Below are positions 27,429 to 45,089 of a DNA stretch of 57,314 bases, one piece after another. How positions within the stretch are numbered: position 1 is the stretch's first letter; each line of letters begins with the position of its first letter. The stretch is from assembly GCA_035655515.1 (NCBI GenBank), contig DASRUI010000016.1, forward strand, positions 1-57,314, written 5' to 3'. A program made the position numbers and the translations under genes. The notes under the pieces were generated by a model. It had not been told where the DNA came from, searched no databases, and worked only from the letters and a program-made list of their open reading frames with translations. The DNA is from Thermodesulfobacteriota bacterium (GTDB lineage: Bacteria > Desulfobacterota > GWC2-55-46 > DRQE01).

Positions 27429-29273
27429 TTAAGAAAGGAGAAAGAAGAGATTCAGGAGCACAAGAAGCCCTACGAAGACGGATACCGCGTAATCGTGCAC
27501 GAGCCCCGTCTGTATGCGGCGCAAAACCACCGACAACCCTGTCATGAGTTCAGCGGCGGCGTTCACGAGCCCGTCAACGACCTCGACGTCGAACTTGAAC
27601 GACATGCCGCAGAGCCGGTCGCTGAGTCTCAAAGCGAGAGTCTTGGCGGCGCTTACGAACCCGTCAACAATCTCTACGTCGAACTTGAACGACATGCCTG
27701 AGAGCCAATTGCCGAACTTCAAGACAAGGGTCTTGTAAGAGTTGCCGACCGCGTTGTCAACCGGCGCAATGACGTTTGTGTCCCACCACATGAAAATTAG
27801 CGCGCCCTTTCTGTAAAACCAGTCCGTGTCGAGGCTTACCACCGGCTTGGTGCCGAGTTTCTTTATGTACAGATAGAAACCGAGCCACGTAAAGAGCAGT
27901 ATCTCGAATGTCCACACGAGATGTTCCGCCGTGTAAGAGGCGTAATGAATCGGATAGGGGAGCATATCGTATAAAAACTTCGGATACAGCCCGATGAATA
28001 CGCACATAAAAGCGGCCATAGCCATGCCAATCAGCATATTCAACGGCGGGTCCTCGGTCTTGATTTTCTTGTCCTCGGCCATGAAGGCGAGATAAGGGAG
28101 TTTCAGGCCTACGGAAAGGAAAGTTCCTGAGGAAGCGAGCGTCAGAAACAACCACGCATAACTAAGATGCTCTTCGGCCGCCGCGCTCACGATTACGGAT
28201 TTGCTCACGAAGCCGCTGAAAAACGGCACGCTCGATATGGCAAATGCCCCGACCATGTAAAGGATAAACGTATAAGGCATGGTCTTGTATAGCCCGCCAA
28301 GTTCGGAGAGTTTTCTCTTTCCCGTCATATAGATGATGCTTCCCGCGCCCATAAAGAGAAGCCCCTTATAGAGTATATGGGCAAAGGCGTGGGCAACGGC
28401 CCCGTTTATCGCCATCTGAGTGCCGATGCCGACCGCAGCCACCATGTAGCCGACCTGGCTTATGATGTGATAGGAAAGCAGCCTTCTTATGTCGTTTTCC
28501 AGAACCGCATAAACAACGCCGTAAACCGCCATGATGACGCCGAGCACTATAAGAATGTCCGTCCCGGCGAAACCCCTCGCAAGGGCATATACCGCGCTCT
28601 TTGTCGTGAACGCCGACATGAAGACGGCGCCGCTTATCGTCGCCTCGGGATAGGCGTCCGGAAGCCATGCCCCGAGCGGAGGCACGGCGGCGTTAATGAT
28701 GAAAGCAATGAGTATGAGCGCGGCGCCGGGCCCCGCAAGTTCCATGGGGTTGAAGGCGAAGCTCTGAGTCTGCGCGTAATACATTACAGCCCCTCCTATG
28801 AGGCATACCCCGCCGAAGATATGCACCAATATATATCTGAACGCCGCCCCGTAAGCCGCGTCAGTCCTCCGGTAAAGTATCAGGAATACCGAAGAAAACG
28901 CCATGAACTCCCAGAATAAGACGAGCGTAAGAAAATCCCCTGCGAGCGCGACCCCGATGGCGCTCCCGGCGTAAACAAAACCGGCTATATGATGGCCGTC
29001 TTCTTTGAGATTCAGCCCGTAGCACATCGAAATAAAAGCCGTAAGCGAAAATATGTATGAAAACACGAGCGAGAGTTTGTCGACCCTGCCGAATATCAGT
29101 TCCTGCCCCATGATGTGATACGCCCCGTAGACACCCTCGCTCATGTTCAGAACGCTTAAAAACGCGAGCGCGGGCAATAAAAGCAGATACGCCTGCTTTA
29201 CCCTGCCTTTAAAAAACGGGATCAAAATGGAGCCTGCTATCAATACCGCCCCCGGGTGAACCCAATCAATCAT
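27429..29273 (-). CDS. Antiporter-like complex I/Mrp-family subunit bearing a NuoL/MrpA-type C-terminal lateral-helix arm (likely annotated NuoL or Na+/H+ antiporter subunit D)
   Basis: 614 aa. PF00361-type core (WEFMAFSSVFLI, GAWLPDAYPEATISGAVFMSAFTTKSAVYALAR). The ~135-aa C-terminal extension ends FDVEVVDGLVNAAAELMTGLSVVLRRIQTGLVHDYAVSVFVGLLVLL. The (I/V)DGxVN...QTG...Y + terminal TM pattern is the helix-HL/TM16 signature of NuoL. The start overlaps the upstream small ORF by 8 nt. Confidence 0.8.
   Translation of the reverse strand: MIDWVHPGAVLIAGSILIPFFKGRVKQAYLLLLPALAFLSVLNMSEGVYGAYHIMGQELIFGRVDKLSLVFSYIFSLTAFISMCYGLNLKEDGHHIAGFVYAGSAIGVALAGDFLTLVLFWEFMAFSSVFLILYRRTDAAYGAAFRYILVHIFGGVCLIGGAVMYYAQTQSFAFNPMELAGPGAALILIAFIINAAVPPLGAWLPDAYPEATISGAVFMSAFTTKSAVYALARGFAGTDILIVLGVIMAVYGVVYAVLENDIRRLLSYHIISQVGYMVAAVGIGTQMAINGAVAHAFAHILYKGLLFMGAGSIIYMTGKRKLSELGGLYKTMPYTFILYMVGAFAISSVPFFSGFVSKSVIVSAAAEEHLSYAWLFLTLASSGTFLSVGLKLPYLAFMAEDKKIKTEDPPLNMLIGMAMAAFMCVFIGLYPKFLYDMLPYPIHYASYTAEHLVWTFEILLFTWLGFYLYIKKLGTKPVVSLDTDWFYRKGALIFMWWDTNVIAPVDNAVGNSYKTLVLKFGNWLSGMSFKFDVEIVDGFVSAAKTLALRLSDRLCGMSFKFDVEVVDGLVNAAAELMTGLSVVLRRIQTGLVHDYAVSVFVGLLVLLNLFFLLS
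27555..27706. repeat. In-frame tandem direct repeat, period exactly 90 bp, inside the arm-coding region
   Basis: 27555-27616 (ggcggcgttcacgagcccgtcaacgacctcgacgtcgaacttgaacgacatgccgcagagcc) versus 27645-27706 (ggcggcgcttacgaacccgtcaacaatctctacgtcgaacttgaacgacatgcctgagagcc), with about 7 mismatches in 62. It encodes GMSFKFDVE(I/V)VDG(F/L)V(S/N)AA twice. Confidence 0.9.
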
Positions 29274-29508
29274 AATAGTCCTCGCTTTTCTGCAACCATA
29301 TTTTCCCTATAAATTTTGACACCACTATAATTGCAACGCACGAAATAAAGCCGTATGCGGCGCTGAAGCCCGGGATTTCGTCCCACGGGAATATCGCGTG
29401 ATGCTTCGGTATTATGAAATCACCGATTACCAAAAGCCCCATGGCAACGTAGACAACGGTCTTGAAAACCTTCTTGCCATGACCTTCGAGTATCTTTTCG
29501 AGTATCAT
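29266..29508 (-). CDS. 80-aa two-TM membrane protein, translationally coupled on both sides
   Basis: ATG 29508 overlaps the upstream stop (ATGA), and its 3' end overlaps the next start by 8 nt. Translation: MILEKILEGHGKKVFKTVVYVAMGLLVIGDFIIPKHHAIFPWDEIPGFSAAYGFISCVAIIVVSKFIGKIWLQKSEDYYD. No family recognised. Confidence 0.6.
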   Translation of the reverse strand: MILEKILEGHGKKVFKTVVYVAMGLLVIGDFIIPKHHAIFPWDEIPGFSAAYGFISCVAIIVVSKFIGKIWLQKSEDYYD

Positions 29509-30974
29509 TTTATCCTCTCTATGATGGACAGGAAAAAGTCGGGCCATACGCCTACTATGACCGTTATTACGGCGGTTATCATTATCGGCGCTATCACGAA
29601 AGGAGGCGCCTCCTTGACGTTACGCACGTGACTGTCTTCCGACGGTTCTTTGAAATACGCCCTGAAGATAATGGGGAGAAAGTAGGCCGCGTTAAGAACC
29701 GTGCTCGTAAGAAGCACCACAAGCGCCGTTCCGTTTCCGGCCTCGAGCGCGCCCTTCACGAGATACCACTTGCTCGTGAACCCGGCGACCGCCGGAACGC
29801 CTATCATGGAAAGAGCGCCTATGGTAAAGGCCGCCATGGTGTAAGGCATCTTTTTCGCTATGCCGTCCATCTGGCTTATCTTCTTTATGTGGGAGGCGAC
29901 GAATATGCTTCCGGCGCAGAAAAAGAGCGTTACCTTGGAAAACGCGTGATTCCCTATGTGAAGTATGCCTCCCAGAACGCCGCTCGGAGTAAGGAGCGCC
30001 ACTCCTAATATCACGTAAGAGAGCTGGCTTATGGTCGAGTAGGCGAGCCTCGCCTTAAGGTCGTCTTTCGTGAGGGCTATGACCGAGGCGGTTATTACCG
30101 TAAAAGACGCGAAGAGCGCGGTCGGAAGTCCGAGCCCGAAGTAACTCATGACGTCCAGCCCGAACACGAAGAGCATTATCCTCACCACCGAAAACACCCC
30201 TACCTTAACGACAGCGACCGCGTGCAAGAGAGCGCTGACGGGCGTGGGCGCGACCATGGCGGAAGGAAGCCAATTATGGAACGGCATCATGCCGGCCTTG
30301 GCTAAACCTATGAGGAAGAATATGTAGGTAAGGGTGACCAGTAGCCTCGGCATCTCGGTCGTGAATATGCCGCCCGGCTGAAAATCGAGGGTCCCGGTTA
30401 TCATGTAGGTCATGATTATCGCGGCAAGCAAAAACACCTTCGCGAGACCTACGAGATAGACGACGTACTTTTTGCCGCCCTCCCACGCGTCCTTGTCCTC
30501 GTGGTGCGCGACGAGCGGATAGGTCATTACGCTCAACAACTCGTAAAAGAGATACAGGGTAAAGAGATTCGCGGCGAACGCGACGCCTATGGCCGAAGAA
30601 AGGGCTATGGCGAAACAGGAAAAAAACCTCGTCTGGGAGTGCTCGTTAAGGGACCTCATGTAGCCTATGGAATAGGCCGTGGCTATAATCCAGAGGAAAG
30701 AGGCGCTCAAAGCGAAGAATATGCCCAAGGGGTCCACCCTGAACTTCAACTCTATCCCGGGTAAAACGGTAAATACCGTGTACTCGACGACCGCGCCGGA
30801 AAGTATCAACGGGAGCATGGATACTATCAACGCGAATTTTACCAAGGCCGCGGCAAAACTCCAGCCCTCTCTCAGGTTCGGGTATTTTCCGGACGCCACA
30901 ATCAAGGCGACCGATATGCCCGACACTAAAACGGCTAAAAGAGGCTTTATCGAAACTATGGTTTGAAATTCCAT
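29505..30974 (-). CDS. Antiporter-like subunit with a NuoL/MrpA-type core but no lateral-helix arm (likely annotated Na+/H+ antiporter subunit D / NADH dehydrogenase subunit)
   Basis: 489 aa. VDPLGIFFAL...YSIGYMRS...RFFSCFAIAL...LFYELLSVMTYPLV resembles the NuoL N-terminal region. HNWLPSAMVAPTPVSALLHAVAVVKVGVF resembles the NuoL/MrpA PTPVSAL(I/L)HA motif. The protein ends right after the 14-TM core. Confidence 0.75.
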   Translation of the reverse strand: MEFQTIVSIKPLLAVLVSGISVALIVASGKYPNLREGWSFAAALVKFALIVSMLPLILSGAVVEYTVFTVLPGIELKFRVDPLGIFFALSASFLWIIATAYSIGYMRSLNEHSQTRFFSCFAIALSSAIGVAFAANLFTLYLFYELLSVMTYPLVAHHEDKDAWEGGKKYVVYLVGLAKVFLLAAIIMTYMITGTLDFQPGGIFTTEMPRLLVTLTYIFFLIGLAKAGMMPFHNWLPSAMVAPTPVSALLHAVAVVKVGVFSVVRIMLFVFGLDVMSYFGLGLPTALFASFTVITASVIALTKDDLKARLAYSTISQLSYVILGVALLTPSGVLGGILHIGNHAFSKVTLFFCAGSIFVASHIKKISQMDGIAKKMPYTMAAFTIGALSMIGVPAVAGFTSKWYLVKGALEAGNGTALVVLLTSTVLNAAYFLPIIFRAYFKEPSEDSHVRNVKEAPPFVIAPIMITAVITVIVGVWPDFFLSIIERIK

Positions 30975-31119: not shown

Positions 31120-32592
31120 TTAAAGTCCGAACGCCTTGCTTGAGGCCATACGGACGAATTCTATGACGTGGTTCGGATACACTCCCAAAGCCAATACCAT
31201 AACCATCGAGACAGCCAGGGCGTAAGACACTCCCTTGCTCGGGGCCGTCTCGTGAACGAAGGCCGGCTCTTTCATGTACATGAGCATGATTACCCTTATG
31301 TAAAAATACGCCGCTATCGCGCTCATGACCACCGCTGCCACGGCGAGACCTATCATGCCTTTATGGATTAGGGCCATGAAGACGTAGAACTTGCCCATGA
31401 ACCCGGCGGTAGGCGGAATGCCGGCCAGGGAAAACATGAATATCATCATGAGGAACGCCAGAAGCGGATGGGTCTTCGAGAGCCCCGCGTAATCCTCGAT
31501 TGTTTCCCCCTGCCTGCCTTCTTTTCTCAGGATAATCACTATCGCGAACGCGCCGAGGGTCATGAACACGTAAACGAGGGAATAGAACATGACGCTTCCG
31601 GCGCCCTCGCCGGTTCCCGCAAGCACGCCCAAAAGCGCGTAGCCGGCGTGGCCTATGCTCGAATAGGCGAGCATCCTTTTAATGTTCGACTGCGCTATCG
31701 CGGTTATGTTTCCGTAGAACATGCTCGCGACGCTCACGACCGCGATAAGCACGAACCACTTATCGTAGGCCGGGCCGAGCCCTTCCATGAAAACCCTTAT
31801 CATGGCGGAAAACGCGGCGGCCTTGCTCGCGACCGATATGAAACCCGTAATCGGCGTCGGCGCTCCCTCGTATGCGTCCGGCGCCCACATGTGAAACGGC
31901 ACTCCGGCCACCTTGAAGGCGAAACCGCACGCCAGCAAAACCAGCGCTATGCTGAGCGAGGGGTTCTTTAAAACCTCGGGCGTAAGGGCGGAGGCGACGG
32001 CGTGGAGTTCGGTGGTTCCCGTAAGCCCGTAGATGAAGGAAATCCCGTAAAGCAGTATCCCCGAAGAGAACGCGCCGAGTATCACGTATTTCATCGCGCC
32101 CTCGCTCGAGCGCGAATCGTTATGAGCGAAGCCGGCGAGAACGTAAACCGGTATGCTCATGAGCTCCAGACCTATGTATATGGAAAGGAGATCCGCCCCC
32201 GACGCCATGACCATCATGCCGCTTAACGAAAAAAGCATGAGGACGTAGTATTCGCCGGAGTTCGCGTCGTCGTCTTTCATGTACCGGAAAGAAATAAGTA
32301 TCGTAAGGACGGCCGCGAAGTAAAAAACGAACTTAAAGAACGTCGAGTAGTCGTCCGCGACGAACATCCCTGAAAAGAACGTGCCGCCGGAAATATCGGA
32401 CGCGAAAATGCAGGCCGAGCCGACGGCCGCGGCGACTACCAGCAAAAACGCGAGAGTAGCCGTAACAATCCGCCTCTTTTCGCCCAAGAGGAGGTCGAGC
32501 AAAAGAAGCACGCTCGCCCCTCCCGCCACCGCAATCTCCGGGCTTATCGCGAGTACGTCTTTTATGCCTATTACGCCGACGCCTGTCATCAT
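31120..32592 (-). CDS. nuoN: NADH-quinone oxidoreductase subunit N
   Basis: 490 aa. LLSIYIGLELMSIPVYVLAGF, PFHMWAPDAYEGAPTPITGFISVASKAAAF and MLAYSSIGHAGY motifs, in the position after nuoM. Confidence 0.9.
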   Translation of the reverse strand: MMTGVGVIGIKDVLAISPEIAVAGGASVLLLLDLLLGEKRRIVTATLAFLLVVAAAVGSACIFASDISGGTFFSGMFVADDYSTFFKFVFYFAAVLTILISFRYMKDDDANSGEYYVLMLFSLSGMMVMASGADLLSIYIGLELMSIPVYVLAGFAHNDSRSSEGAMKYVILGAFSSGILLYGISFIYGLTGTTELHAVASALTPEVLKNPSLSIALVLLACGFAFKVAGVPFHMWAPDAYEGAPTPITGFISVASKAAAFSAMIRVFMEGLGPAYDKWFVLIAVVSVASMFYGNITAIAQSNIKRMLAYSSIGHAGYALLGVLAGTGEGAGSVMFYSLVYVFMTLGAFAIVIILRKEGRQGETIEDYAGLSKTHPLLAFLMMIFMFSLAGIPPTAGFMGKFYVFMALIHKGMIGLAVAAVVMSAIAAYFYIRVIMLMYMKEPAFVHETAPSKGVSYALAVSMVMVLALGVYPNHVIEFVRMASSKAFGL

Positions 32593-32598
32593 GTCTCC

Positions 32599-34137
32599 TT
32601 AAAAACCCGCCACGGGCGCGCCCGTTACCTGCGCCAGCAAGTTGGCGACCGATACGTGCATCACGTTGAGAAAACTCATGGGCCTAAAACCAACCCAGAA
32701 TACGAACACCAGAAACGCGACGAGAGCCGCGGCCTCCCTCAGGTTTATGTCGCGGACATCGCCGTGGCCGTGCGTCTCCCCATGGCCGGATTCATCGCCA
32801 TGCTCCGCGTGCGATTGCCCGAAACTTACCCTCTGATACATGGAAAGCATGTAAGCCGCGCCGAGCGCTATGCCCGCGAAAAGGAAGAACAAATAAAACT
32901 TATAGCTCGCGTACGCACCCGCGAGTATCAGAAATTCTCCGATAAATCCGTTAGTGCCCGGAAATCCCAGAGACGCCAGAGAGAATATCAACAAAAACAC
33001 CGCGTAAATCGGGATGCGCCTTGCCGCCCATCCGTAGTCTTTGAGGTTTCTCGTGTGCGTCCTCTCGTATATCAACCCGACGCAGAGGAACAGCGCCCCT
33101 GTCGTTATGCCGTGGTTGAACATCTGAAGCATGCCGCCCTCGACCCCGTTCTTGTTAAGAAGAAATAACCCCATGGTGATGAAGCCCATGTGGCTTATGC
33201 TCGAATAGGCGATGAGTTTTTTCATGTCCTCCTGCGAAAGAGCGAGGAACGCCCCGTATATTATGGCTATTATGGAAAGGATTGCAACGGGGGTTGTGAA
33301 ATAAATGCTCGCGTCGGGGAACATGGGGAACAAAAACCTCAGGAATCCGTACGCGCCCATCTTCAGAAGCACTCCGGCGAGCATGATGCTTCCGGCGGTC
33401 GGAGCCTCGACGTGCGCGTCGGGCAGCCAAGTGTGGAACGGAAACATGGGAACCTTTATGGCGAAGGCGATGAAGAGCAAAATAAACACGAACGCCTGAA
33501 AGCCGAAGGCGTATTGCTTTGTCATGAGAAGCGGTATGTCGAACGTCCCTCCGGAGGTGAAATAAAGGGCTACGATGCCGACAAGCATGAATTTGCCTCC
33601 GACCCATGTGTAAAGGAAGAACTTGATCGCCGCGTATATCCTCCTCGGGCCGCCCCAAATCCCGATTATGAGACACATCGGTATGAGCATGGCCTCCCAG
33701 AATATGTAGAAGAGGAAGAAGTCGAGCGAGGCAAAAACCCCCATCATGGCCGCCTGCATCAAGAGGAGCATTATCATGAACTGTCTTACGCGCTTCTCTA
33801 TCGACGTCCACGAGGCCAAAACGCATATCCACCCGATGAGGCCGGTAAGGAACATGAATATCACGCTTATACCGTCCACTCCGAGGTAGTACTCGATATT
33901 AAGGCTCGGTATCCACTCGCCTCTTTCAACGAACTGCATTGCGGCGGTTCCCCTGTCGAAGCGCAAGAGAAGAGGTATGGTAAGGATAAAGTCCGCCACC
34001 ATAGCAACGAGCGTTATCCAGCGCGAGGCCGAAGCATTTTTCACGAAAAGAAGCGCGACCACGGCAAGAAGCGGCAGGAATATTATGACGCTCAAGATAT
34101 GGTCTTGAATCATAGGCAGATCGAGAAGAAACTCCAT
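32599..34137 (-). CDS. nuoM: NADH-quinone oxidoreductase subunit M, downstream tandem copy (His-rich loop variant)
   Basis: 512 aa. FYIFWEAMLIPM, PFHTWLPDAHVEAPTAGSIMLAGVLLKMGAYGFLRF and LIAYSSISHMGF motifs. About 9 in 10 residues are identical to the upstream copy by eye. Confidence 0.92.
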   Translation of the reverse strand: MEFLLDLPMIQDHILSVIIFLPLLAVVALLFVKNASASRWITLVAMVADFILTIPLLLRFDRGTAAMQFVERGEWIPSLNIEYYLGVDGISVIFMFLTGLIGWICVLASWTSIEKRVRQFMIMLLLMQAAMMGVFASLDFFLFYIFWEAMLIPMCLIIGIWGGPRRIYAAIKFFLYTWVGGKFMLVGIVALYFTSGGTFDIPLLMTKQYAFGFQAFVFILLFIAFAIKVPMFPFHTWLPDAHVEAPTAGSIMLAGVLLKMGAYGFLRFLFPMFPDASIYFTTPVAILSIIAIIYGAFLALSQEDMKKLIAYSSISHMGFITMGLFLLNKNGVEGGMLQMFNHGITTGALFLCVGLIYERTHTRNLKDYGWAARRIPIYAVFLLIFSLASLGFPGTNGFIGEFLILAGAYASYKFYLFFLFAGIALGAAYMLSMYQRVSFGQSHAEHGDESGHGETHGHGDVRDINLREAAALVAFLVFVFWVGFRPMSFLNVMHVSVANLLAQVTGAPVAGF

Positions 34138-34177: not shown

Positions 34178-35704
34178 TTAAAAGCCCGCCACGGGCGCGC
34201 CCGTTACCTGCTCCAGAAGATTGGCGACCGATACGCGCATCACGTCAAGAAAACTTGCGGGCCACAAACCAACCCAGAATACGAACACCGTAAACGCGAC
34301 GAGAGCCGCGGCTTCCCTCAGGTTTATGTCGCAGACGCAGCCCCGCCCCGCGCCGTCGCCGGGCTCCGCTTGAGCCGTGTCGAAGCTGAAGCATACCCTC
34401 TGATACATGGAAAGCATGTAAGCCGTGCCGAGCGCTATGCCCGCAAGAAGGAATAACAAATAAAACTTATAGCTCGCGTACGCGCCTACGAATATCAGGA
34501 ATTCTCCGATAAATCCGTTAGTGCCCGGGAATCCCAGAGACGCCAGAGAGAAGATAAAGAGAAATCCCGCGTAAGCAGGCATGAGCCTTCCCACCCATCC
34601 GTAGTCTTTGAGATTTCTCGTGTGCGTCCTCTCGTATATCAACCCGACGCAGAGGAACAGCGCCCCTGTCGTTATGCCGTGGTTGAACATCTGAAGTATG
34701 CCGCCCTCGACCCCGTTCTTGTTGAAAAGAAATAACCCCAAGGTGATGAAGCCCATGTGGCTCACGCTCGAATAGGCGATGAGTTTTTTCATGTCCTCCT
34801 GCGAAAGAGCGAGGAACGCCCCGTATATTATGGCTATTATGGAAAGGATTATGACGGGGGTGGCGAAATAAATGCTCGCGTCGGGGAACATGGGGAGCGA
34901 AAACCTCAGAAATCCGTACGCGCCCATCTTCAGAAGCACTCCGGCGAGTATGATGCTTCCGGCGGTCGGAGCCTCAACGTGCGCGTCCGGCAACCAAGTG
35001 TGGAACGGAAACATGGGAACCTTTATGGCGAAGGCGATGAAGAACAAAATAAACACGAACGCCTGAAAGCCGAAGGCGTATTGCTTTGTCATGAGAAGCG
35101 GTATGTCGAACGTCCCTCCGGAGGCGAAATAGAGGGCGATGATGCCGACGAGCATGAGTATGCTTCCGGCAAGCGTGTAGAGGAAGAACTTAATCGCCGC
35201 GTAAACCCTCCTCGGCCCGCCCCAAACCCCGATTATGAGATACATCGGTATGAGCATGGCCTCCCAGAATATGTAGAAGAGGAAGAAGTCGAGCGAGGCG
35301 AAAACCCCCATCATGGCGGCCTGTATAACGAGGAGCGTTATCATGAACTCTTTTACGCGCTTATCAACTGACGTCCACGAGGCCAAAACGCATATCCACC
35401 CGATGAGGCCGGTAAGGAACATGAAGAGAACGCTTATACCGTCTATTCCGAGGTAGTACTCGATATTAAGGCTCGGTATCCATTCGCCTCTTTCGACGAA
35501 CTGCATTGCGGCGGTTCCCTTGTCGAAACGCAAGAGAAGGGGTATGGTAAGGATAAAGTCCGCGACAAGCGCCGCGAGCGTTATCCAGCGCGAGGCCGAG
35601 TCGTTTCTCACGAAAAGAAGCAGGGCGACGGCCAGAAGCGGCAGGAATATTATGACGCTCAGGATATGGCCTTTAATAATAGGCAAATCGAGAAGAAACT
35701 CCAT
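34178..35704 (-). CDS. nuoM: NADH-quinone oxidoreductase subunit M, upstream tandem copy
   Basis: True start is ATG 35704 (MEFLLDLPIIKGH...), 2 nt after the nuoK stop. The 605-aa track ORF is an out-of-frame read-through across nuoK. It has the same NuoM motifs as the other copy. Confidence 0.92.
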   Translation of the reverse strand: MEFLLDLPIIKGHILSVIIFLPLLAVALLLFVRNDSASRWITLAALVADFILTIPLLLRFDKGTAAMQFVERGEWIPSLNIEYYLGIDGISVLFMFLTGLIGWICVLASWTSVDKRVKEFMITLLVIQAAMMGVFASLDFFLFYIFWEAMLIPMYLIIGVWGGPRRVYAAIKFFLYTLAGSILMLVGIIALYFASGGTFDIPLLMTKQYAFGFQAFVFILFFIAFAIKVPMFPFHTWLPDAHVEAPTAGSIILAGVLLKMGAYGFLRFSLPMFPDASIYFATPVIILSIIAIIYGAFLALSQEDMKKLIAYSSVSHMGFITLGLFLFNKNGVEGGILQMFNHGITTGALFLCVGLIYERTHTRNLKDYGWVGRLMPAYAGFLFIFSLASLGFPGTNGFIGEFLIFVGAYASYKFYLLFLLAGIALGTAYMLSMYQRVCFSFDTAQAEPGDGAGRGCVCDINLREAAALVAFTVFVFWVGLWPASFLDVMRVSVANLLEQVTGAPVAGF

Positions 35705-35706: not shown

Positions 35707-36009
35707 TTACCCTTTCAAAGAATCCATTTCGTCGGCATTGAAGACGTTGCGTTGCCTCATGAGCGCTATCAATATGCCCAGGGCAACGGCGACCTCGGCC
35801 GCGGCTACGGTTATGGTGAAAACCGCGAACATCTGCCCCCTCATGTCGCCGAGATAGTACGAAAACGCCACGAGGTTTATGTTCACCGAGTTGAGCATCA
35901 GCTCGACGCTCATGAGCATTATTATTATATTCTTCCTGAGCAGCACCCCGGACGCCCCTATGACAAAAAGCGCGAGCCCGAGCGCCATATACCACGTAAC
36001 TGGAATCAT
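35707..36009 (-). CDS. nuoK: NADH-quinone oxidoreductase subunit K
   Basis: 100 aa, 3 [28 protein letters not shown]...[11 protein letters not shown]. Confidence 0.93.
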
Positions 36010-36013
36010 AACC

Positions 36014-36508
36014 TCAGTTCCACCTCTTTTTCGCCATGACTATCGCGCCGACCATCGCGGCCAGCAAAAGCACCGAAACAACCTCGAACGGAAGAAGATA
36101 ATCGGTAAAAAGGGCCTTGCCGAACTCTTTGACCGAGGTCTCGGCGGAGGTCGGGGGCAACATGTCTTTAAAGGCGCTGCCCCATATTACGATAAAAAAC
36201 TCGATGGCGACGAGCGGGCTCACCACGTAGGCGAACCACCTGTTAAGCCGCGGGAAGACCTCAAGCGCCGCTTTTTCCATGTCCAACACCAAAACGACGA
36301 AGAGGAAAAGCACCATGACCGCGCCGACGTATATGAAAAGTTGCGCCGCCGCGAGGAAAGGCGCGCGGAGAAGCACGAATATGCACGCCACCTGAAAAAA
36401 CGTCACCATGAGCGCGAGGGCGCCGTGCACCGGGTTTTTCAGGCTTATCACCGCCAGCGCCGCGACTACCGCGGTAACCGCGAACATTATAAAGAATAAT
36501 TTTTCCAT
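36014..36508 (-). CDS. nuoJ: NADH-quinone oxidoreductase subunit J
   Basis: True start is ATG 36508 ([33 protein letters not shown]...[13 protein letters not shown]). The upstream 41 codons of the track ORF translate an intergenic repeat. Confidence 0.9.
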
Positions 36509-36521
36509 ATATCCCGCAATT

Positions 36522-36600
36522 CCCGCTTCCCGTTGCAATGCTTTACCGGGGTACCCATGCGAAGCATGGGTCGTGGAGCCCGGCCCCTTTGAAAAAGAGG
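36522..36600. repeat. Mosaic hairpin-module repeat in the nuoI-nuoJ gap
   Basis: The 17-mer cgcttcccgttgcaatg (36524-36540) is identical to 45001-45017. The 26-mer ggggtacccatgcgaagcatgggtcg (36548-36573) is identical to 49069-49094. The element ends with cccctttgaaaaag. Confidence 0.8.
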
Positions 36601-36609
36601 AAAACGAAA

Positions 36610-37197
36610 CTACTTCGCCTTTAACCACCAATCGGGCTTTTGTTCTTCAAAATACGGCACTATGACCGGCACGCCTTTAATCTTATCCCTGCCGAGCCGC
36701 GCCTTCACGATGACGCCTCCCTTGAAATACTCCGGGGTGCGCTGAGGCACGAGCAGTTCTTCCTTCGTGAAAAACGTGCAACTTTTGTCGGAGCAGGCAA
36801 GCTCGAAGTCCCTGCCGAGCCGGACGGCCGTCGTCGGGCAGGCGTCCTCGCAGTATCCGCAGAAAAGGCACCTTACGAGGTTTACCGTCCAGACCGCCGC
36901 TACCCTGTCGGATATGCCTCTTCCGTTCTTGTCCTCGACCGGCACCACCGTTATGCAGTTGGTCGGGCAGGCCTTGACGCAAAGTTCGCACGCGACACAG
37001 AGTTCCTTGCCTCTCTCGTCCCTGTTCAACGTGTGCCTGCCTCTAAACCTCCTGTACGGCACCCACTTCTCCTCGTCCGGATAGCGAAGCGTTACGCTCC
37101 TCGACACGTTATGCCGGAAGGTAGTGGAAAGCCCCTTCAGAAAATCCAAGAAGAATATCCTCTTTATCAAATCCGCTATGCCGAAAGGTTTTTTCAT
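36610..37197 (-). CDS. nuoI: NADH-quinone oxidoreductase subunit I
   Basis: ATG 37197 overlaps the nuoH stop (ATGA). Two 4Fe-4S motifs, CVACELCVKACP and CLFCGYCEDACP. A ~35-aa C-terminal extension is present. Confidence 0.93.
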   Translation of the reverse strand: MKKPFGIADLIKRIFFLDFLKGLSTTFRHNVSRSVTLRYPDEEKWVPYRRFRGRHTLNRDERGKELCVACELCVKACPTNCITVVPVEDKNGRGISDRVAAVWTVNLVRCLFCGYCEDACPTTAVRLGRDFELACSDKSCTFFTKEELLVPQRTPEYFKGGVIVKARLGRDKIKGVPVIVPYFEEQKPDWWLKAK

Positions 37198-38231
37198 GGC
37201 ACCCATATCTTTAAGAATCCGGTAACGAGAATGTTCGCCATCGAGACCGGTATCAATATCTTCCACCCTATGTTCATGAGCTGGTCATAGCGGTAGCGCG
37301 GTATGGTAAACCTTATCCACATGAAAAAGTAGATTAACACCGCCACCTTGCCCATGAGCCAGAATATCCCCGGCAAAATCCCCGTGCCGAACGGGTCGTC
37401 CCAGCCGCCGAGGAAAAGAATGGTCGTAAGCGCCGCGATGGAGGTCATGGCGATGTACTCGGCCATGGCGAAGAACGAAAACCTCATGCCGCTGTATTCG
37501 GTGTGGAACCCCGCCCCGAGAGTGCCCTCGTCCTCGGGAAGGTCGAACGGAATCCTGTTCATCTCGGCCATCCCGGCTATCACGAATATCACGAACCAAA
37601 CAGGCCCGACCGGAAGGTAAAACACGTTCCAATGGAATACCCCTCCGTATTGGCTCCTTACGATGTCCAATAGGGAGAGGGAGCCTGATATCATCACGAC
37701 CCCTATCACCGCGAACGTGAGGGACACCTCGTAACTGATCATCTGGGCCGCGGAACGAAGCCCTCCGAGAAGGGCGTACTTGCTGTTCGATGCCCACCCT
37801 CCTAACATCAATCCGTAAACCGAAAGGCCGGAAACCGCGAGCACGTATAAAATCCCCATGTTCATGTCTGAGATGTAGAGGGTTATCTCTTTATCCACGT
37901 AGGGAAGATTAACGGATTCCCCGAACGGCATCGCGACGAATATCAAGAACATCGGCACAAGCGCTATGAGGGGCGCGATCTTAAAAAGAAACTTATCGGC
38001 CTTTTCCGGAACGATGTCCTCCTTGAGGAGCATCTTTATTCCGTCGGCGACGGGCTGGAGTATGCCGTGCGGGCCGACCCTGAAGGGCCCGAGCCTCGAC
38101 TGTATGTGCCCTGCCACCTTCCTCTCTATCCACGTAAGAGGTATGGGAAGGTTAAAGAGCACTCCGGCCACTATCATCACCTTTACGATGATTATGACGA
38201 CCTCTGTCAATACCGCCGTATCCATTGTCAT
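37194..38231 (-). CDS. nuoH: NADH-quinone oxidoreductase subunit H
   Basis: IERKVAGHIQSRLGPFRVGPHGILQPVADGIKMLLKED...EGTLGAGFHTEYSGMRF. Confidence 0.95.
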   Translation of the reverse strand: MTMDTAVLTEVVIIIVKVMIVAGVLFNLPIPLTWIERKVAGHIQSRLGPFRVGPHGILQPVADGIKMLLKEDIVPEKADKFLFKIAPLIALVPMFLIFVAMPFGESVNLPYVDKEITLYISDMNMGILYVLAVSGLSVYGLMLGGWASNSKYALLGGLRSAAQMISYEVSLTFAVIGVVMISGSLSLLDIVRSQYGGVFHWNVFYLPVGPVWFVIFVIAGMAEMNRIPFDLPEDEGTLGAGFHTEYSGMRFSFFAMAEYIAMTSIAALTTILFLGGWDDPFGTGILPGIFWLMGKVAVLIYFFMWIRFTIPRYRYDQLMNIGWKILIPVSMANILVTGFLKIWVP

Positions 38232-38238
38232 GCCTGTC

Positions 38239-38709
38239 TTATCTCTTTCTTCCCCACATGTAGTTTATCATCTCCATGTAGCGCGTGTTCATGCCGCGCA
38301 CTATGGAATGCACGGTAAAAACGACGTTCCGCATGAGCTTATACACTATCCACGGGTGGGTTTCCACCACCCTCTCGAAGTCTTTCCTCTCAAGAACCAA
38401 AACCTCTATGTCGGAGACCGCGACGACGGTGGCGGAACGCGGCCTTCCGTCGAGAAAACTCATCTCTCCGAATATCTCCCCCTCTTTCATGAGGGTCAAC
38501 GTGAATAGTTCCCCGTCGGGAGAGACCTTGCAGGCCTTTACCTCGCCTTTTTTAAGCACGTAAAGCGATTCTCCGTCCTCGCTCTCTGAAAATATAGTCT
38601 CGCCGCGCTTGTACTCTTTCTTTCCGAGCATCTTCGCGACCACCTCGCGCTCTTTATCGTTAAGCTCGGTGAAGAAAGGGATGTTCCCGAGTATTTTCGG
38701 ATCTACCAT
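38239..38709 (-). CDS. Stand-alone cyclic-nucleotide-binding (CAP-family cNMP) domain protein, no HTH
   Basis: 156 aa. FFTELNDKEREVVAKML, ESLYVLKKGEV, and the phosphate-binding cassette FGEMSFLDGRPRSATVVA. A short helical tail follows and there is no DNA-binding domain. AAGGAGG RBS. It starts 34 nt after nuoG and ends 7 nt before nuoH. Confidence 0.85.
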   Translation of the reverse strand: MVDPKILGNIPFFTELNDKEREVVAKMLGKKEYKRGETIFSESEDGESLYVLKKGEVKACKVSPDGELFTLTLMKEGEIFGEMSFLDGRPRSATVVAVSDIEVLVLERKDFERVVETHPWIVYKLMRNVVFTVHSIVRGMNTRYMEMINYMWGRKR

Positions 38710-38743
38710 AAAACGCCTCCTTTTACTTTCAAGGGCATATTAG

Positions 38744-41239
38744 TCATTCCTTGAAACCCGCTATGTTGACGACCGGTATAGGTTCGCCTTTTCTGAAAAA
38801 TCTGTTCACCGGAGCGTCATTGAAATTCTCCGGTATGAAACAAACGTCTTTCATGGAATTCGCCTTGACCCGCAACGCGAACTTGGCGCTGAATCCGTTT
38901 CCGCTCACAATGACCTTGTCTCCGTCCGAAAGGCCGGCCTCGTCGGCCCTGAGTTTGCTTATCTCGACAACAGGCTCCTTAAGAAGCCCGCTGAGTATGG
39001 ACGACCTGCTTGAAAGTCTGCCTGAATAATAAAGGTGATTTCCCGTAACGAGAATATAAGAGTTGACCTTGTCGGTCTTGAACGGAACGCCCGGCTCCGG
39101 TTTATCCCCCGCGCCGGAAAGCCTTTTATCCGAAGCCTTTACCATGACGCCCTTGGCGCCGCCCGCCGATATCTCCGCTCCGGCGTAAGACGAGACTTGT
39201 TTTTTTATCTCCTCGAAAACCGAAGCGCTCGAACCGACGGTCATCGAAGCCGCGGCATCGAGAAGAGAGGCTATTATGTCGAAATCCGTCTTAACATCGC
39301 CCGGGGGCTTGACAAGCGGATAAACCGCCTGAATACGTCCTTCCTGATTCGTCACGGTGCCGCTTCTTTCGACGAACACGGCCGAAGGCAATATAAGATG
39401 CGCCAACTTCGCGGTCTCCGTCATGAAACTCGCCTGCACCGCCAAAAACTTGACCTTTGAAAGGGCGCCCCCGGCAAAGGCCTCGTCCGGGTACATCGCC
39501 GCTATGTCCTCTCCGACGACGTACATAGCGTCCATCTCTCCCGATGCCGCTTTCTCCAACATCTCCCCGCACGACATCCCCCGCGACACGGCTTCGTAGC
39601 CGGGGCCGAAAACCGGACTTACTCCCATGTCCCAGGCGCCCCTCTGGTTAGACCTGTCGAGAAGCGGCAATACCCTGATTTTCTTGCCCATCGCCTTGAG
39701 TGAAGCGATAAGAAGCCCTAACGCGAAAGAGCCTTCCTTATATCTTAGAAAGTCCGTGCCGGCCATGATGCTTATCGTCTCGGCTCTTTTGAAACGCTCT
39801 ATAAGGGCGTTTACGTCCGGGGCTTCGGCGCCGCATGTCTGCAAGAGTTCTTCGATCGAAGCGGCATTTATTGCCTCCATGCCCTTTACGGCGCTCAACT
39901 TGGCGGAATTGTCCTTATTAAGCAAAGAGACCGCCGCGAGGAGAAGGCTTCCGACACGTCCCGGAAGATGCCTTATCCTCAAATGCGCCGAGGAATCCAG
40001 CTTCATGGAGCGCGGAGACGCTATGACCACGGCCTTCCTCGCGCTCGCCGAAACATACCTTACTATGTAATCGGTAACCGGATTTTCATCCGATATCTGG
40101 GAGCCGACTATGAAAGTCATGTCCGAGTCCATGCACTCGTAAACGGCGGAAGGGCCTTCGGCCATGCCCGTGGCCGATATGAACGAGGCGACGGCCGAGG
40201 CGTCCCACCTTGAAGAAGAATCCACGTTAGGCGTCTTTACGACTTGCCTCATAAGCTTCTGAAAAAGGTAGAGTTCCTCGTTCGTAAGACGCGCCGAGGC
40301 GACGCCTCCGACCTTTTCCGGGGCCGGCCTCATGAGGGCTTCCTTAAGAACCTCTATCGCCCTCGCCCACGATATCGGCTCGAACCTGACGCCGACCTTC
40401 AAAAGAGGCGTTGTGAGCCTGTCGGCGTTGTTGCTTATGTCGTAACCGAACCTGCCTCTCGCGCAAAGCATGTTCGCGTTGAATCCGTTGGAATTGCGCG
40501 CTATGGAGCGCACCACCTCTCCGTTACGGGACTCGACGGTTATCCTGCAACCGGTCGCGCAATAAGGGCAGACCGTGGCGGAACTTTTCAAATCCCACGG
40601 CCTTGCCTTGTACCTGTAAGGCCGCCTCATAAAGCACCCTACAGGGCAAACCTCTATGCACATGCCGCAGTGGTCGCAGTCGAGTTCGGTCTTCCAAAAG
40701 CTCGTCTCCTCCTGATGCGCGCCCCTGCCCATGACACCCAGAACTCCCCTTCCGACAATCTCCCTGCAGACCCGGACGCACCTCGTGCACTGGACGCAGC
40801 GGTTGGAGTTCTTCACTATGACCGGACTTAAAACGTAATCTTCCTCGTGGAAGCGTATCTTGACCTCGTCGAATCTTCCGTTCCTCGGCCCGTGCTTGTA
40901 AACCATGTCCTGCAACTCGCACTCGCCGGCCTTGTCGCAGACCGGGCAATCGAGGGCGTGGTTCGAAAGGAGAAACTCAAGCATCGCCGCTCTCATAGAC
41001 GAAATCGAGCTTGACTCGGTAAGTATGCTCACGCCGGGTATTACCGGGGTTATGCACGCGGGTTGGAGCTTTTTCTGCCCCTCTATCTCTATAAGACACA
41101 TCCTGCAGCTTCCGAGTCCGGATATCCGAGCCTGATAGCAGAAGGTCGGGATGTCGAATCCGGCTTCTTTGGCCGCGTCCAGAATAAGCGTGCCGTCATT
41201 CACGGTTATCTCTTTATTGTTTATCTTTAAAGTTATCAT
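38744..41239 (-). CDS. nuoG: NADH-quinone oxidoreductase subunit G
   Basis: 831 aa. An N-terminal 2Fe-2S ferredoxin-like part (CYQARISGLGSCRMCLIE), HALDCPVCDKAGEC, 4Fe-4S motifs, then a molybdopterin-oxidoreductase-like domain. Confidence 0.93.
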   Translation of the reverse strand: MITLKINNKEITVNDGTLILDAAKEAGFDIPTFCYQARISGLGSCRMCLIEIEGQKKLQPACITPVIPGVSILTESSSISSMRAAMLEFLLSNHALDCPVCDKAGECELQDMVYKHGPRNGRFDEVKIRFHEEDYVLSPVIVKNSNRCVQCTRCVRVCREIVGRGVLGVMGRGAHQEETSFWKTELDCDHCGMCIEVCPVGCFMRRPYRYKARPWDLKSSATVCPYCATGCRITVESRNGEVVRSIARNSNGFNANMLCARGRFGYDISNNADRLTTPLLKVGVRFEPISWARAIEVLKEALMRPAPEKVGGVASARLTNEELYLFQKLMRQVVKTPNVDSSSRWDASAVASFISATGMAEGPSAVYECMDSDMTFIVGSQISDENPVTDYIVRYVSASARKAVVIASPRSMKLDSSAHLRIRHLPGRVGSLLLAAVSLLNKDNSAKLSAVKGMEAINAASIEELLQTCGAEAPDVNALIERFKRAETISIMAGTDFLRYKEGSFALGLLIASLKAMGKKIRVLPLLDRSNQRGAWDMGVSPVFGPGYEAVSRGMSCGEMLEKAASGEMDAMYVVGEDIAAMYPDEAFAGGALSKVKFLAVQASFMTETAKLAHLILPSAVFVERSGTVTNQEGRIQAVYPLVKPPGDVKTDFDIIASLLDAAASMTVGSSASVFEEIKKQVSSYAGAEISAGGAKGVMVKASDKRLSGAGDKPEPGVPFKTDKVNSYILVTGNHLYYSGRLSSRSSILSGLLKEPVVEISKLRADEAGLSDGDKVIVSGNGFSAKFALRVKANSMKDVCFIPENFNDAPVNRFFRKGEPIPVVNIAGFKE

Positions 41240-41276
41240 CTGCCGATTCCCTTTACCTTTACCCTTTTGTCTTTAC

Positions 41277-41370
41277 CTCCTCTCCCCGACGGGGAGAGGA
41301 TTGAGGTGAGGGGTCTTTAATTTTCTTTTCCTATAACCCCTAAGTCCCCCCTCGCCCCAAAGGGGAGAGG
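41277..41370. repeat. Two CCTCTCCCC/GGGGAGAGG-type hairpin units in the nuoF-nuoG gap
   Basis: cctcctctccccgacggggagaggattgaggtgaggggtc and cccctcgccccaaaggggagagg. Confidence 0.6.
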
Positions 41371-41423
41371 AAGAAAAAGATAAAACCATTGCTTCTTCTT
41401 TACCCTTTACCTCTACCCTGTCC

Positions 41424-42680
41424 TTACACCATGCACTTCTTATTTTCTACGTGATACACGAACTCTTCCCTGAAATTTTTAAGCGCGCCGCGAAGGGCCA
41501 TCACGGCGCCGTCAGACAAGGGACAGAACGTCCTTCCGAATATATTTCCGCAGAGGTCTTCCAAAAGCTCCACGTCTCCCTGCCTTCCGGTGCCGGACTC
41601 GAGACGCCTTAATATCTTGGTCATCCACGTCGTGCCTTCCCTGCATGGAGTGCATTTGCCGCAGGACTCGTGGCTGAAAAAGCGGTTTATTATGTAAGCG
41701 GTCTTGACCATGCAAGTCGTTTCGTCCATGACTATGACCCCTCCGCTTCCGAGCATGGTGCCTTTTTGCGCGAGGGAGTCGAAATCCATGGGCGTATCCA
41801 GATCCTTCTCGATAAGAAGCGGCGCGCTCACGCCTCCGGGTATTACCGCCTTGAATTTTCTTCCGTGCCTTACGCCTCCCGCGTGATCATAGATTATCTC
41901 GCGCAAAGGCGTGCCCATCGGAAGCTCAAAGATGCCCGGCTTATTCACGTGCCCGCTTACGCAGTAGAGTTTCGGGCCCGGGCTTTTTTCGGGCCCTATG
42001 GTTTTAAACCAGTTCGCGCCCTTGGATATTATGAAAGGCACGCAGGCCAATGTCTCGACGTTATTTATGACGGTCGGCTTTGCGTAAAGGCCGCTTAAAG
42101 CGGGGAACGGCGGCTTTTTCCTCGGCTGGCCCCTTAATCCCTCTATGGACTCGAGCAACGCGGTTTCCTCGCCGCAGATGTAGGCTCCGAAACCCCTGTG
42201 CACGTGCATATCGAGCGAAAAGCCGCTCCCGAAGATATTTTTACCGAGGTATCCCTTGCCATAGGCCTCAAGAATCGCCTGTTCGAGAATCTTCGCGCTC
42301 CGCGCGAACTCTCCCCTTATGTATATGTAAGCCGTGCCGGCGCCTATTGCGTAGCTCGTTATTATCATGCCCTCGATGAGAAGGTGCGGGTCGTTCTCCA
42401 TTATGACCCTGTCCTTGAACGTGCCGGGCTCGCCCTCGTCGGCGTTACAGCAGAGGTATTTGGCGAGGGTGGGATCCTTTGGTATGAAACTCCACTTAAG
42501 GCCCGTCGAAAAACCGGCTCCTCCCCTGCCCCTTAAGCCGGAATCCTTGATACGCTGGATAAGTTCGTCGGGAGTCATCTTGAACGCGTCCGCGACGGCC
42601 TTGTAACCGCCTCCTGCGAGATACGCGCCTATGGTGAGGGAGTCGGGCTTACCCACGTTTTTAAGAAGAGTCTTTTCCAT
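41424..42680 (-). CDS. nuoF: NADH-quinone oxidoreductase subunit F
   Basis: GLRGRGGAGFSTGLKW (FMN site), CNADEGEPGTFKDR and ESCGKCTPCREG (N3 cluster). Confidence 0.95.
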   Translation of the reverse strand: MEKTLLKNVGKPDSLTIGAYLAGGGYKAVADAFKMTPDELIQRIKDSGLRGRGGAGFSTGLKWSFIPKDPTLAKYLCCNADEGEPGTFKDRVIMENDPHLLIEGMIITSYAIGAGTAYIYIRGEFARSAKILEQAILEAYGKGYLGKNIFGSGFSLDMHVHRGFGAYICGEETALLESIEGLRGQPRKKPPFPALSGLYAKPTVINNVETLACVPFIISKGANWFKTIGPEKSPGPKLYCVSGHVNKPGIFELPMGTPLREIIYDHAGGVRHGRKFKAVIPGGVSAPLLIEKDLDTPMDFDSLAQKGTMLGSGGVIVMDETTCMVKTAYIINRFFSHESCGKCTPCREGTTWMTKILRRLESGTGRQGDVELLEDLCGNIFGRTFCPLSDGAVMALRGALKNFREEFVYHVENKKCMV

Positions 42681-42684
42681 CAGC

Positions 42685-43152
42685 CTACTTAAGACCTCTC
42701 AGTATGCCCGTTACTTTTTCTTCGGTGAGGCCTTCGTAATAATCGTCGTTTATCTGCATAATCGGAGCCGTGCCGCAACTTCCGAGGCACTCGACGAGCG
42801 ATAACGTCACCTTGCCGTCCTTTGTGGTCTGCCCCGTCTTTATGCCGAGCGTCTTTTCCATGTGACGCACGAGATGCTCGGCGCCGAGAAGCGAGCACGA
42901 AAGATTTCTGCAGACCTGCACGTGGTTCCTGCCGACCGGCTTCTCGACGTTATACATCGTGTAAAAAGCCCCGACCTCCTCGACCTCCACCGGCTCCATC
43001 TCGAGGAGCTTTGCCACGTCCGCCATGTCGTCCTTCGACAGAAAACCCTTCTCCCGCTGGACGGACTGCATCGCGGCCATACAGGCGGACTTTTTCGAGT
43101 GGTATCTCGCCTGAATCTTTTTTATCTCTTCGATCATTTTTTCGCTCAGCAT
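42685..43152 (-). CDS. nuoE: NADH-quinone oxidoreductase subunit E
   Basis: VQVCRNLSCSLLGAE...VECLGSCGTAPIMQIN 2Fe-2S motif. Confidence 0.93.
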   Translation of the reverse strand: MLSEKMIEEIKKIQARYHSKKSACMAAMQSVQREKGFLSKDDMADVAKLLEMEPVEVEEVGAFYTMYNVEKPVGRNHVQVCRNLSCSLLGAEHLVRHMEKTLGIKTGQTTKDGKVTLSLVECLGSCGTAPIMQINDDYYEGLTEEKVTGILRGLK

Positions 43153-43218
43153 AATTGCCTTATTCCATTTGGATTACAGATAAAAATCAATAACCGTCAT
43201 TCGTCATTGTTTGTTTTC

Positions 43219-43272
43219 GTAGGGCAGACCTTTAGGTCTGCATCTTTACGCAAGGCTAAAGCCTTGCCCTAC
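43219..43272. repeat. GTAGGGCA...TGCCCTAC nested-hairpin element, copy 4
   Basis: gtagggcagacctttaggtctgcatctttacgcaaggctaaagccttgccctac, in the nuoD-nuoE gap. Confidence 0.7.
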
Positions 43273-43287
43273 GTAAAAATAACCGCC

Positions 43288-44472: not shown

Positions 44473-44487
44473 TGGAATAAGCCGGCC

Positions 44488-44991
44488 TTACTTTTTCTTT
44501 TCTTCGCCAAAAGGGTTATATTGGTCTTTATAACCCTTAAGCGGGTAATCCTTTCTTAAAGGGAAACCTTCCCAATCCTTGGGCATGTATATGCGTTTTA
44601 GATTCGGATGATTGTCGAATACGATTCCATACATGTCGTAGGTTTCTCTCTCAGGCCAATCCGCGCCGCGCCACACCGCTGTTACGGAATCAATGGTCTC
44701 GCCGTCGGAAAGCCTTGTCTTAAGCCTGAGCCTTATCTTTCTCGTTACGCTCACGAGGTTATAGACCACCTCGAATCTCGGCGTTTCGGGATGATAGTCC
44801 ACCCCGCATATGTCGGAGACGTAGTTTATCTGCAAATCGGATTCGCTTTTGAGAAAACGGCAGACGTCAAGAAGCGAGCCCTTGTCTATGGAGAGGTTTA
44901 TCTCACCCTTGGACACAAAGGCATCCGACACCACGGTCCCGAACCGCGCTCTTACCGTATTTATTATCAATAGTTCTTTAGCGCTGTCCAT
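44488..44991 (-). CDS. nuoC: NADH-quinone oxidoreductase subunit C
   Basis: From ATG 44991 (MDSAKELL...). [28 protein letters not shown] motif. The upstream 8 codons of the track ORF lie in a repeat. Confidence 0.92.
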
Positions 44992-45000
44992 GAATCCCCT

Positions 45001-45080: not shown

Positions 45081-45089
45081 GAACCCTGA

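Follow-up and report, generated by a model that had tools for sequence, protein, structure and literature searches.

In solved relatives of the protein studied here, a C-terminal arm stretches beside the adjacent pump subunits and holds them like a clamp, as described for the lateral helix HL and the terminal transmembrane helix TM16 in MBS (PMC7684303). HL has been called 'shortened' or 'elongated' according to the number of pumps in MBH, MBS and complex I (PMC7684303). The closest described system to the locus studied here is Complex_I_3 of 'Candidatus Manganitrophaceae' (Yu, Chadwick, Lingappa & Leadbetter 2022, mBio), described as unique to this family and carrying a conserved 26-aa insert in the HL of its MrpD2 subunit (PMC9040806). 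A longer HL for an extra pump was already proposed as the rationale of this insert, together with the hypotheses that all five pumps assemble in one complex, that up to 6 H+ are moved per 2 e- and that this possibly drives reverse electron flow (PMC9040806). For complex I, it is debated whether the role of HL goes beyond that of a structural clamp, and how closely the helix has to fit the row of pumps in length. Here we analyse a nuo operon carried by a contig of 57,314 nucleotides from a Thermodesulfobacteriota bacterium (GenBank assembly GCA_035655515.1, contig DASRUI010000016.1, hereafter the window). This operon probably encodes a complete NADH-type complex I with five pumps, in which a tandem-duplicated HL unit has lengthened the arm to span an extra NuoM.

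A tandem repeat in the lateral helix of the arm-bearing subunit

The arm-bearing subunit and its relevant parts are the following:

27429..29273, minus strand: arm-bearing antiporter-like subunit ('L-like', MrpD2-like), 614 aa (PF00361, NF009310, PDB and Foldseek matches)
27507..27824, minus strand: entire amphipathic lateral helix HL (residues 484-589; predicted to break at 551-558; AlphaFold2, hydrophobic moment, arm profile)
27648..27737, minus strand: HL repeat unit A, residues 513-542, YKTLVLKFGNWLSGMSFKFDVEIVDGFVSA (Tandem Repeats Finder array, translation, unit register)
27558..27647, minus strand: HL repeat unit B, adjoining TM16, residues 543-572, AKTLALRLSDRLCGMSFKFDVEVVDGLVNA (Tandem Repeats Finder array, nucleotide identity to unit A)
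27435..27491, minus strand: terminal anchor helix TM16, residues 595-613 (AlphaFold2, mean hydrophobicity <H> of 0.83, alignment to TM16 of NuoL chains)

A first-pass annotation of the window had reported a 90-bp in-frame tandem repeat, recognised from two 62-bp segments with about 7 mismatches. This repeat is real. Tandem Repeats Finder detected a single array (27555-27735; period 90, 2.0 copies, 79% matches, 0% indels, score 229), in frame with the minus-strand open reading frame (ORF) of 614 aa at 27429-29273, and 8 mismatches were counted between the 62-bp segments at 27555-27616 and 27645-27706. Units A and B are identical at 69-71 of their 90 nucleotides (77-79%) and at about 60-63% of their amino acids; in 300 codon-order shuffles of the same coding sequence, the best in-frame 90-nt self-match was 42.9 on average (sd 1.5, maximum 49), against 71 in the real gene. 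The duplicated unit corresponds to the TM16-proximal part of HL and holds the conserved FD..(V/I)DG.VN motif; downstream of unit B, the protein continues with ...RRIQTGLVHDYAVSVFVGLLVLL....

The source is evidently an assembly of the metagenome-assembled genome (MAG) type, in which tandem repeats are error-prone, and the array could in principle have arisen in assembly or sequencing, for example through collapse or expansion of a repeat. We consider this scarcely credible and reject it. The array is not a duplicated read stack, because 19-21 of the 90 nucleotides differ between its units. An artefact is ruled out because the two-unit arrangement is shared by an independent MAG contig (L074; L003/L074 come from bin H32-bin127_2, with two units), which has the same layout with its own substitutions, and by the 90%-identity cluster that includes the protein of the window (P0001, 10 member sequences, representative of 614 aa). 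In addition, eight other proteins carry a diverged arm of the same +30 class (see below). A third, degenerate copy of the unit, which had also been proposed further upstream, is rejected: in the upstream arm of 62 base-arm homologues, a hidden Markov model of the unit scored on average -5.3 bits, compared with -5.1 bits on shuffled sequences, and thus performed no better on real arms.

The repeat had been placed in the HL that precedes the terminal transmembrane helix of NuoL-type proteins, and both structure prediction and profile comparison agree with this position. In the AlphaFold2 model (68-sequence alignment, monomers only; mean predicted local distance difference test score, pLDDT, of 85.7 for the core), the protein of the window exhibits TM15 at residues 449-468, two helices at 484-550 and 559-589 and a terminal transmembrane helix at 595-613. 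A base-arm relative of 584 aa (P0007) has one helix (485-558) followed by TM16 (565-583). The arm thus contains 98 helical residues in the window versus 74 in this relative, corresponding to about 36-45 Å of extra helix at 1.5 Å per residue. This arm has the character of an amphipathic helix and is more polar than a transmembrane hairpin would allow, with a mean hydrophobic moment (muH) of 0.31 and an <H> of 0.23, compared with 0.63 for TM15 and 0.83 for TM16. A transmembrane hairpin in place of a surface helix is rejected on this low <H> and on the long helices predicted by AlphaFold2, which show no hairpin.

An arm profile (A2) built from 19 base arms matched the HL-TM16 region of solved NuoL, NdhF and Nqo12 chains: 8e9g_L (544-623, E 5.7e-9), 4he8_L (532-604, E 7e-6), 6hum_F (583-650) and 8qby_L (625-697). 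The match takes in the D..V(V/I)DG.VN and R..Q(T/S/N)G..YA motifs, and the base arm is colinear with the canonical NuoL HL (79 profile positions versus 80 residues of 8e9g_L). Together with the AlphaFold2 topology, this indicates that the L-like protein has the TM15-HL-TM16 C-terminal extension. The aspartate of the FD motif may be equivalent to D563 of Escherichia coli NuoL, which we take as a lead only, E. coli NuoL not being among the chains matched by the profile.

The L-like protein is not a canonical NuoL but should be classified from its profile matches as a MrpD2-like arm-bearing subunit. It passes the curated equivalog cut-off of NF009310, 'Na(+)/H(+) antiporter subunit D' (717.2 bits, cut-off 564), and falls below those of both NCBIfam NuoL profiles, NF005141 (144.6 bits, cut-off 556) and TIGR01974 (133.9 bits, cut-off 407.5), with which it aligns end to end (residues 63-612 and 64-610, respectively). 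The NF009310 profile has 584 positions, which is the length of base-arm proteins, and its alignment to the L-like protein covers residues 1-553, ending at the start of the extra unit. In sequence searches against the PDB, the best matches were MbsH' (6u8y_X, E 5.7e-35), MrpA (7d3u_A) and MrpD (7qru_D), NuoL chains ranking lower; in Foldseek searches with the model, the closest structures were MrpA (9a6h_A, 7qru_A and 6z16_A), followed by NuoL.

The two hallmarks of NuoL are split between two proteins of the operon. The arm is present in the L-like protein (27429-29273), in which Pfam detects no PF00662 (Proton_antipo_N) domain, and PF00662 is present in an arm-less protein, hereafter D-like (29505-30974; 25.6 bits, cut-off 24.5). 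Their cores also match different families, MbhH and then NuoL/NdhF for the D-like protein, and MbsH', MrpA and MrpD for the L-like one.

Pump genes and arm length in related loci

The operon is encoded on the minus strand in the order nuoA B C D E F G, a cyclic nucleotide (cNMP)-binding gene, nuoH I J K, nuoM, nuoM, nuoN, the D-like gene, a 93-aa ORF and the L-like gene:

35707..46041, minus strand: rest of the operon, nuoK J I H, cNMP-binding gene (38239-38709), nuoG F E D C B A (Pfam, ORF list)
34178..35704, minus strand: nuoM copy 1, with a start at MEFLLDLPIIKG; the mechanical ORF extends to 35995 (PF00361, alignment with copy 2)
32599..34137, minus strand: nuoM copy 2 (TIGR01972, 612 bits; 86.6% amino acid and 90.5% nucleotide identity to copy 1)
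31120..32592, minus strand: nuoN (PF00361; TIGR01770, 485.8 bits, cut-off 332.6)
29505..30974, minus strand: arm-less antiporter-like subunit ('D-like', MrpD1-like), 489 aa (PF00361 and PF00662; NF006236, 735 bits, cut-off 663; best PDB matches MbhH, then NdhF and NuoL)
29266..29547, minus strand: small conserved ORF of 93 aa between the two MrpD-like genes (homologue at the equivalent position in most related loci)

Judged from its genes, the cluster encodes five pump-type subunits, since two MrpD-like genes (D-like and L-like) replace NuoL and a second nuoM accompanies the first one and nuoN. No canonical nuoL or further PF00361-type gene was detected in the window by Pfam or by BLASTP of all window ORFs against the operon proteins. 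The locus is not a Mrp cluster, in which mrpE, F, G, B and C would stand beside the antiporter-like genes; it carries nuoA-K instead.

The lengthening of the arm had been suggested to follow the number of pumps, and we therefore compared both features among homologues. The survey set comprised 120 homologues and the L-like ORFs of 80 genome loci. Arm length was defined as the distance between the landmarks D.DW.YR and R..QTG, both found in 119 sequences, which fall into four classes:

Base: 72-74 aa, n = 72
+26: 98-99 aa, n = 37
+30: 103 aa, n = 9, including the window
+55: 128 aa, n = 1 (P0070)

Where the FD..DG pattern is detected, base arms contain nearly always one motif and +30 arms two. 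A second copy is recognisable in +26 arms, often in degenerate form (e.g., FDIYVVDG or FENYIIYG), and the +55 protein P0070 has three units.

Pump genes were counted around the L-like genes in genome, metagenome and assembly contigs, giving 49 clusters. All eight long-arm genes are accompanied by two nuoM and all 41 base-arm loci in fully covered clusters by one nuoM, with no discordant case (Fisher exact probability 1/C(49,8), about 2e-9 by hand arithmetic, phylogeny being ignored). The association holds in both gene orders, K-M-M-N-D-s-L (s being the small ORF), found with +30 arms in the window, L081 and L083, and K-D-s-L-M-M-N, found with +26 arms in L084, L086, L087 and L092; the eighth long-arm locus, L085, is of the +55 class. 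It is also visible between neighbours in the tree (P0106, base arm and one nuoM, versus P0077, +26 and two nuoM) and between syntenic loci (L088, with a 584-aa protein and one nuoM, versus the window, with a 614-aa protein and two nuoM, both flanked by ispE-prs-L25-pth). The D-like gene and the small ORF occur in base-arm and long-arm clusters alike. The proposal of one repeat per additional pump, originally extended to both the extra nuoM and the extra L-like core, therefore stands for the former and not for the latter: every base-arm cluster also contains the D-like gene, so that the extension tracks nuoM and the extra D-like subunit is rejected as its cause.

This association is probably explained by a simple scenario. 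NuoL is replaced by two Mrp-type antiporter-like subunits and the small ORF, as in 'green complex I', and a second nuoM is also present. HL being expected to run along the row of pumps, TM16 would have to reach its usual docking site, and an extra NuoM, about 40-45 Å wide, would need a helix about 26-30 residues longer. The 30-residue HL unit, duplicated in tandem and in frame, has lengthened the arm by about one subunit width (30 × 1.5 Å, or about 45 Å). Duplicating an existing unit would give the needed length in one step, with the conserved motif still beside TM16. Because the arm would be about 45 Å longer, TM16 could still reach its anchoring site in the presence of the extra NuoM. We infer that both NuoM copies would belong to one complex, with the arm physically spanning both, and that the enzyme might move about 6 H+ per 2 e-, a value proposed for the Manganitrophaceae enzyme, possibly being run in reverse.

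Alternatively, the extra unit could be neutral, an in-frame variation in the length of a linker helix that tolerates it, without link to the number of pumps. The locus is indeed mutable, close relatives differing in copy number (one unit in L001, 87% identical, and two in the window and in L074), and no other part of the protein is as poorly conserved, or modelled with as little confidence, as the arm. However, neutrality does not predict a perfect association with nuoM (8/8 versus 0/41) in two gene orders and several clades, lengths that fall at discrete values (+26, +30 and +55) instead of being scattered, or old, diverged duplicates kept in frame, and we regard it as very unlikely. Somewhat less remote, but still improbable in our opinion, is that the longer arm serves another contact than the second NuoM, such as MBS-like dimerisation, the D-like subunit or the small ORF. 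HL is part of the dimer interface in MBS, the HL of MbsH' touching the partner complex (PMC7684303). The base arm has only canonical HL length in spite of four pumps. Yet the D-like gene and the small ORF, being common to both kinds of clusters, cannot explain the difference between them, and the nuoM copy number is the only difference in gene content that tracks arm length.

Several observations nevertheless weigh against an arm lengthened to span the second NuoM. The base arm, with about 74 helical residues, already has the canonical HL length, yet base complexes have four pump genes. Because the base arm is colinear with the canonical HL, one unit per extra subunit leaves the D-like subunit unaccounted for; the latter is probably not under the clamp, or is otherwise placed. 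The association between arm and nuoM is phylogenetically clustered and may represent only 3-5 independent transitions. P0070 (locus L085) has three units and five visible pump genes, on a contig that starts inside the D-like gene. The pLDDT of the arm is only 42-79 in the monomer model of the window protein, a low value that is expected because the arm was modelled without its partner subunits. The proportion of synonymous differences (pS) is 0.45 between the HL units (20 synonymous sites) versus 0.18 between the two nuoM, and this does not support simultaneous duplications. Finally, a shared assembly of both NuoM copies is a prediction from gene content.

Other features of these clusters can be mentioned. 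The small ORF, which has no Pfam or NCBIfam match, encodes predicted hydrophobic helices; its stop and start codons overlap those of its neighbours, and a positional homologue is present in most nuo-type and Mrp-type clusters. Near the C-terminus, nuoM copy 2 contains a His/Gly-rich segment, HAEHGDESGHGETHGHGD, which is six residues shorter in copy 1 (QAEPGDGAGRG) and is the most diverged part of the pair. The gene located between nuoG and nuoH (38239-38709, minus strand) encodes a 156-aa protein with a cyclic nucleotide-binding domain (PF00027) and is kept at this position in L002, L004, L081, L084, L087, L089 and L092, which suggests a regulatory subunit or a regulator tied to this type of complex I. 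In L084 (15185-16825), the second nuoM is separated from nuoN by an inserted radical-SAM gene. In L086 (6546-8127), nuoK and the D-like gene are interrupted by ORFs for ATP-synthase a, c and gene-1, and no nuoE, F or H was seen in this cluster.

A trio formed by D-like, small ORF and L-like genes, together with a second D-like gene, also occurs in true Mrp clusters (L034-L080), for instance in Deferribacter thermophilus (L048, 4413-11740), with MnhE, MrpF, MnhG, MbhD/E, MnhB and MrpC. The arms encoded by these clusters are devoid of the FD..DG motif and measure 79-111 aa from D.DW to the C-terminus. True Mrp clusters are probably the ancestral context of the trio.

Age, gain and apparent loss of HL units

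The two nuoM of the window are close paralogues (dS about 0.20). Among the long-arm loci, the identity between HL units falls alongside that of the nuoM pair (rank correlation of about 0.86, calculated by hand over roughly four independent lineages), as can be seen from the following values (HL units / nuoM pair, % identity):

Window: 60 / 87
L081: 37 / 69
L083: 33 / 68
L084: 38 / 51
L087: 27 / 50
L086: 23 / 32
L085: 19 / 33

In the neighbour-joining (NJ) tree of NuoM, the two copies of the window are sisters, the paralogues of L081/L083 and of L084/L087 pair across genomes, and a deep branch is formed by the second NuoM of L085/L086. Comparison with the L081 paralogues in sliding windows was noisy, copy 2 of the window being slightly closer to the second NuoM of L081 in the C-terminal third. 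The nuoM pair of the window may stem from a new, independent duplication or from concerted evolution of an older one by gene conversion.

The arm states are patchy in the tree of the L-like core. The sister of the window protein, L001 (bin MFD12058_ilm_asm_bin5, on a contig of 2,972 nt), has a single unit with 87% identity, and the copy number has therefore changed recently. A metagenome scan for sequences matching this one-unit sister found nothing closer than 60% identity. Units also seem to be lost. The contig L093 (UOEZ01000085.1) carries two adjacent L-like paralogues (4429-6297 and 6606-8384), 87.5% identical; one is a two-unit protein of 622 aa and the other a one-unit protein of 592 aa, exactly a single 30-aa unit apart, and the unit pair itself is old and diverged. 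The synteny of this contig, ...N-D-s-L-ispE-prs, is that of the window, and the contig ends inside nuoM. At the other extreme, the additional 29-aa unit of P0070 (L085, 815-2764, 649 aa) is identical to its neighbour at 70 of 87 nucleotides, a similarity that marks this third unit as young. The NJ tree also places the core of P0033 (615 aa) in the +26 clade, although its arm belongs to the +30 class and is almost the same as the arms of P0002 and P0004; this protein may be a recombinant or a chimeric assembly.

We are slightly inclined to a broader reading, in which HL would act as a modular ruler able to evolve: a 26-30-residue unit would be duplicated in tandem time and again, or precisely deleted, to match the clamp to the number of pumps. 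On this reading, the 26-aa insertion described before would be an old copy of the unit, and the window a young event outside Manganitrophaceae, with a separate or recently re-homogenised five-pump origin. Organisms such as the source of L093 could possibly build four- or five-pump enzymes as needed.

These loci offer a natural experiment on the clamp, in the form of close relatives differing by exactly one HL unit and exactly one nuoM. The unit was gained on more than one occasion (+26, +30 and the third unit of +29) and apparently also removed (L093 paralogues), and tandem duplication of the TM16-proximal unit provides a simple molecular route for the 'insertions' reported earlier. The results also bear on the tuning of the H+/e- ratio or on reverse electron transport in anaerobes and lithotrophs.

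Comparison with described complexes

The topology TM15-HL-TM16 is common to the L-like protein and to canonical NuoL, Nqo12, ND5 and NdhF, whose HL has one copy of the unit. The best sequence and structure matches of the window protein are to MbsH' of the archaeal MBS and to the N-terminal domain of MrpA. In MBS, HL and TM16 hold two pump subunits together (PMC7684303). Unlike the complex predicted from the window, MBS and Mrp have one or two pumps and are non-NADH or antiporter complexes, and MrpA has an extra C-terminal domain.

Two other systems are known here through their citation in PMC9040806. In the 'green complex I' of rhizobia (Degli Esposti & Martinez-Romero 2016), two MrpD-like subunits replace NuoL, according to this account, as in the window. 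This complex corresponds to the base-arm clusters with one nuoM (L002, L004, L008-L033, L088 and others) and, unlike that of the window, has four pumps and a base arm with a single FD..DG unit. The '2M' complex I of Nitrospira (Chadwick, Hemp, Fischer & Orphan 2018, ISME J) is cited there as combining an extra nuoM with a HL insertion of about 26 aa, the same pairing as in the window, and the insertion is interpreted as accommodating a fourth pump. As far as the cited account goes, it differs from the window in having the arm on a canonical NuoL and four pumps in total.

The first-pass annotation had presented arm extension by internal tandem duplication as undescribed. This was only partly right, because a five-pump enzyme with a lengthened HL is already known and lengthening with extra pumps has been published (PMC9040806, PMC7684303). 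The origin of the HL insert by tandem duplication appears to be undescribed, Chadwick et al. (2018) being outside this comparison; the word 'duplication' is absent from PMC9040806. We also found no description of the +30 class and its young instance, the K-M-M-N-D-s-L order, the arm with three units, the long and short paralogues lying side by side, or five-pump clusters in MAGs named Deltaproteobacteria or Thermodesulfobacteriota.

The closest parallel remains Complex_I_3, which likewise has two MrpD-like subunits in place of NuoL, two NuoM, one NuoN and a MrpD2 whose HL is longer than in four-pump relatives. The window protein is 54-56% identical to P0064 and P0114, named Manganitrophaceae in their sources. 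The insert of the window is of 30 aa and not of 26 aa, the 26-aa class being also recovered in our survey (98-99 aa). The gene order is K-M-M-N-D-s-L in the window versus D-s-L-M-M-N in Complex_I_3, and nuoE, F and G are present in the window. The two nuoM of the window are 86.6% identical, unlike those of the Manganitrophaceae-like L085 and L086 (32-33%), and the closest genome records of the window are named Thermodesulfobacteriota or Deltaproteobacteria MAGs, which widens the range of five-pump complex I beyond Manganitrophaceae. The locus is thus an incremental step on a published concept and not a new kind of system; what further distinguishes it from Complex_I_3 is that the tandem-duplication origin of the longer arm is still visible, because its two units have remained 60-63% identical in amino acids (77-79% in nucleotides).

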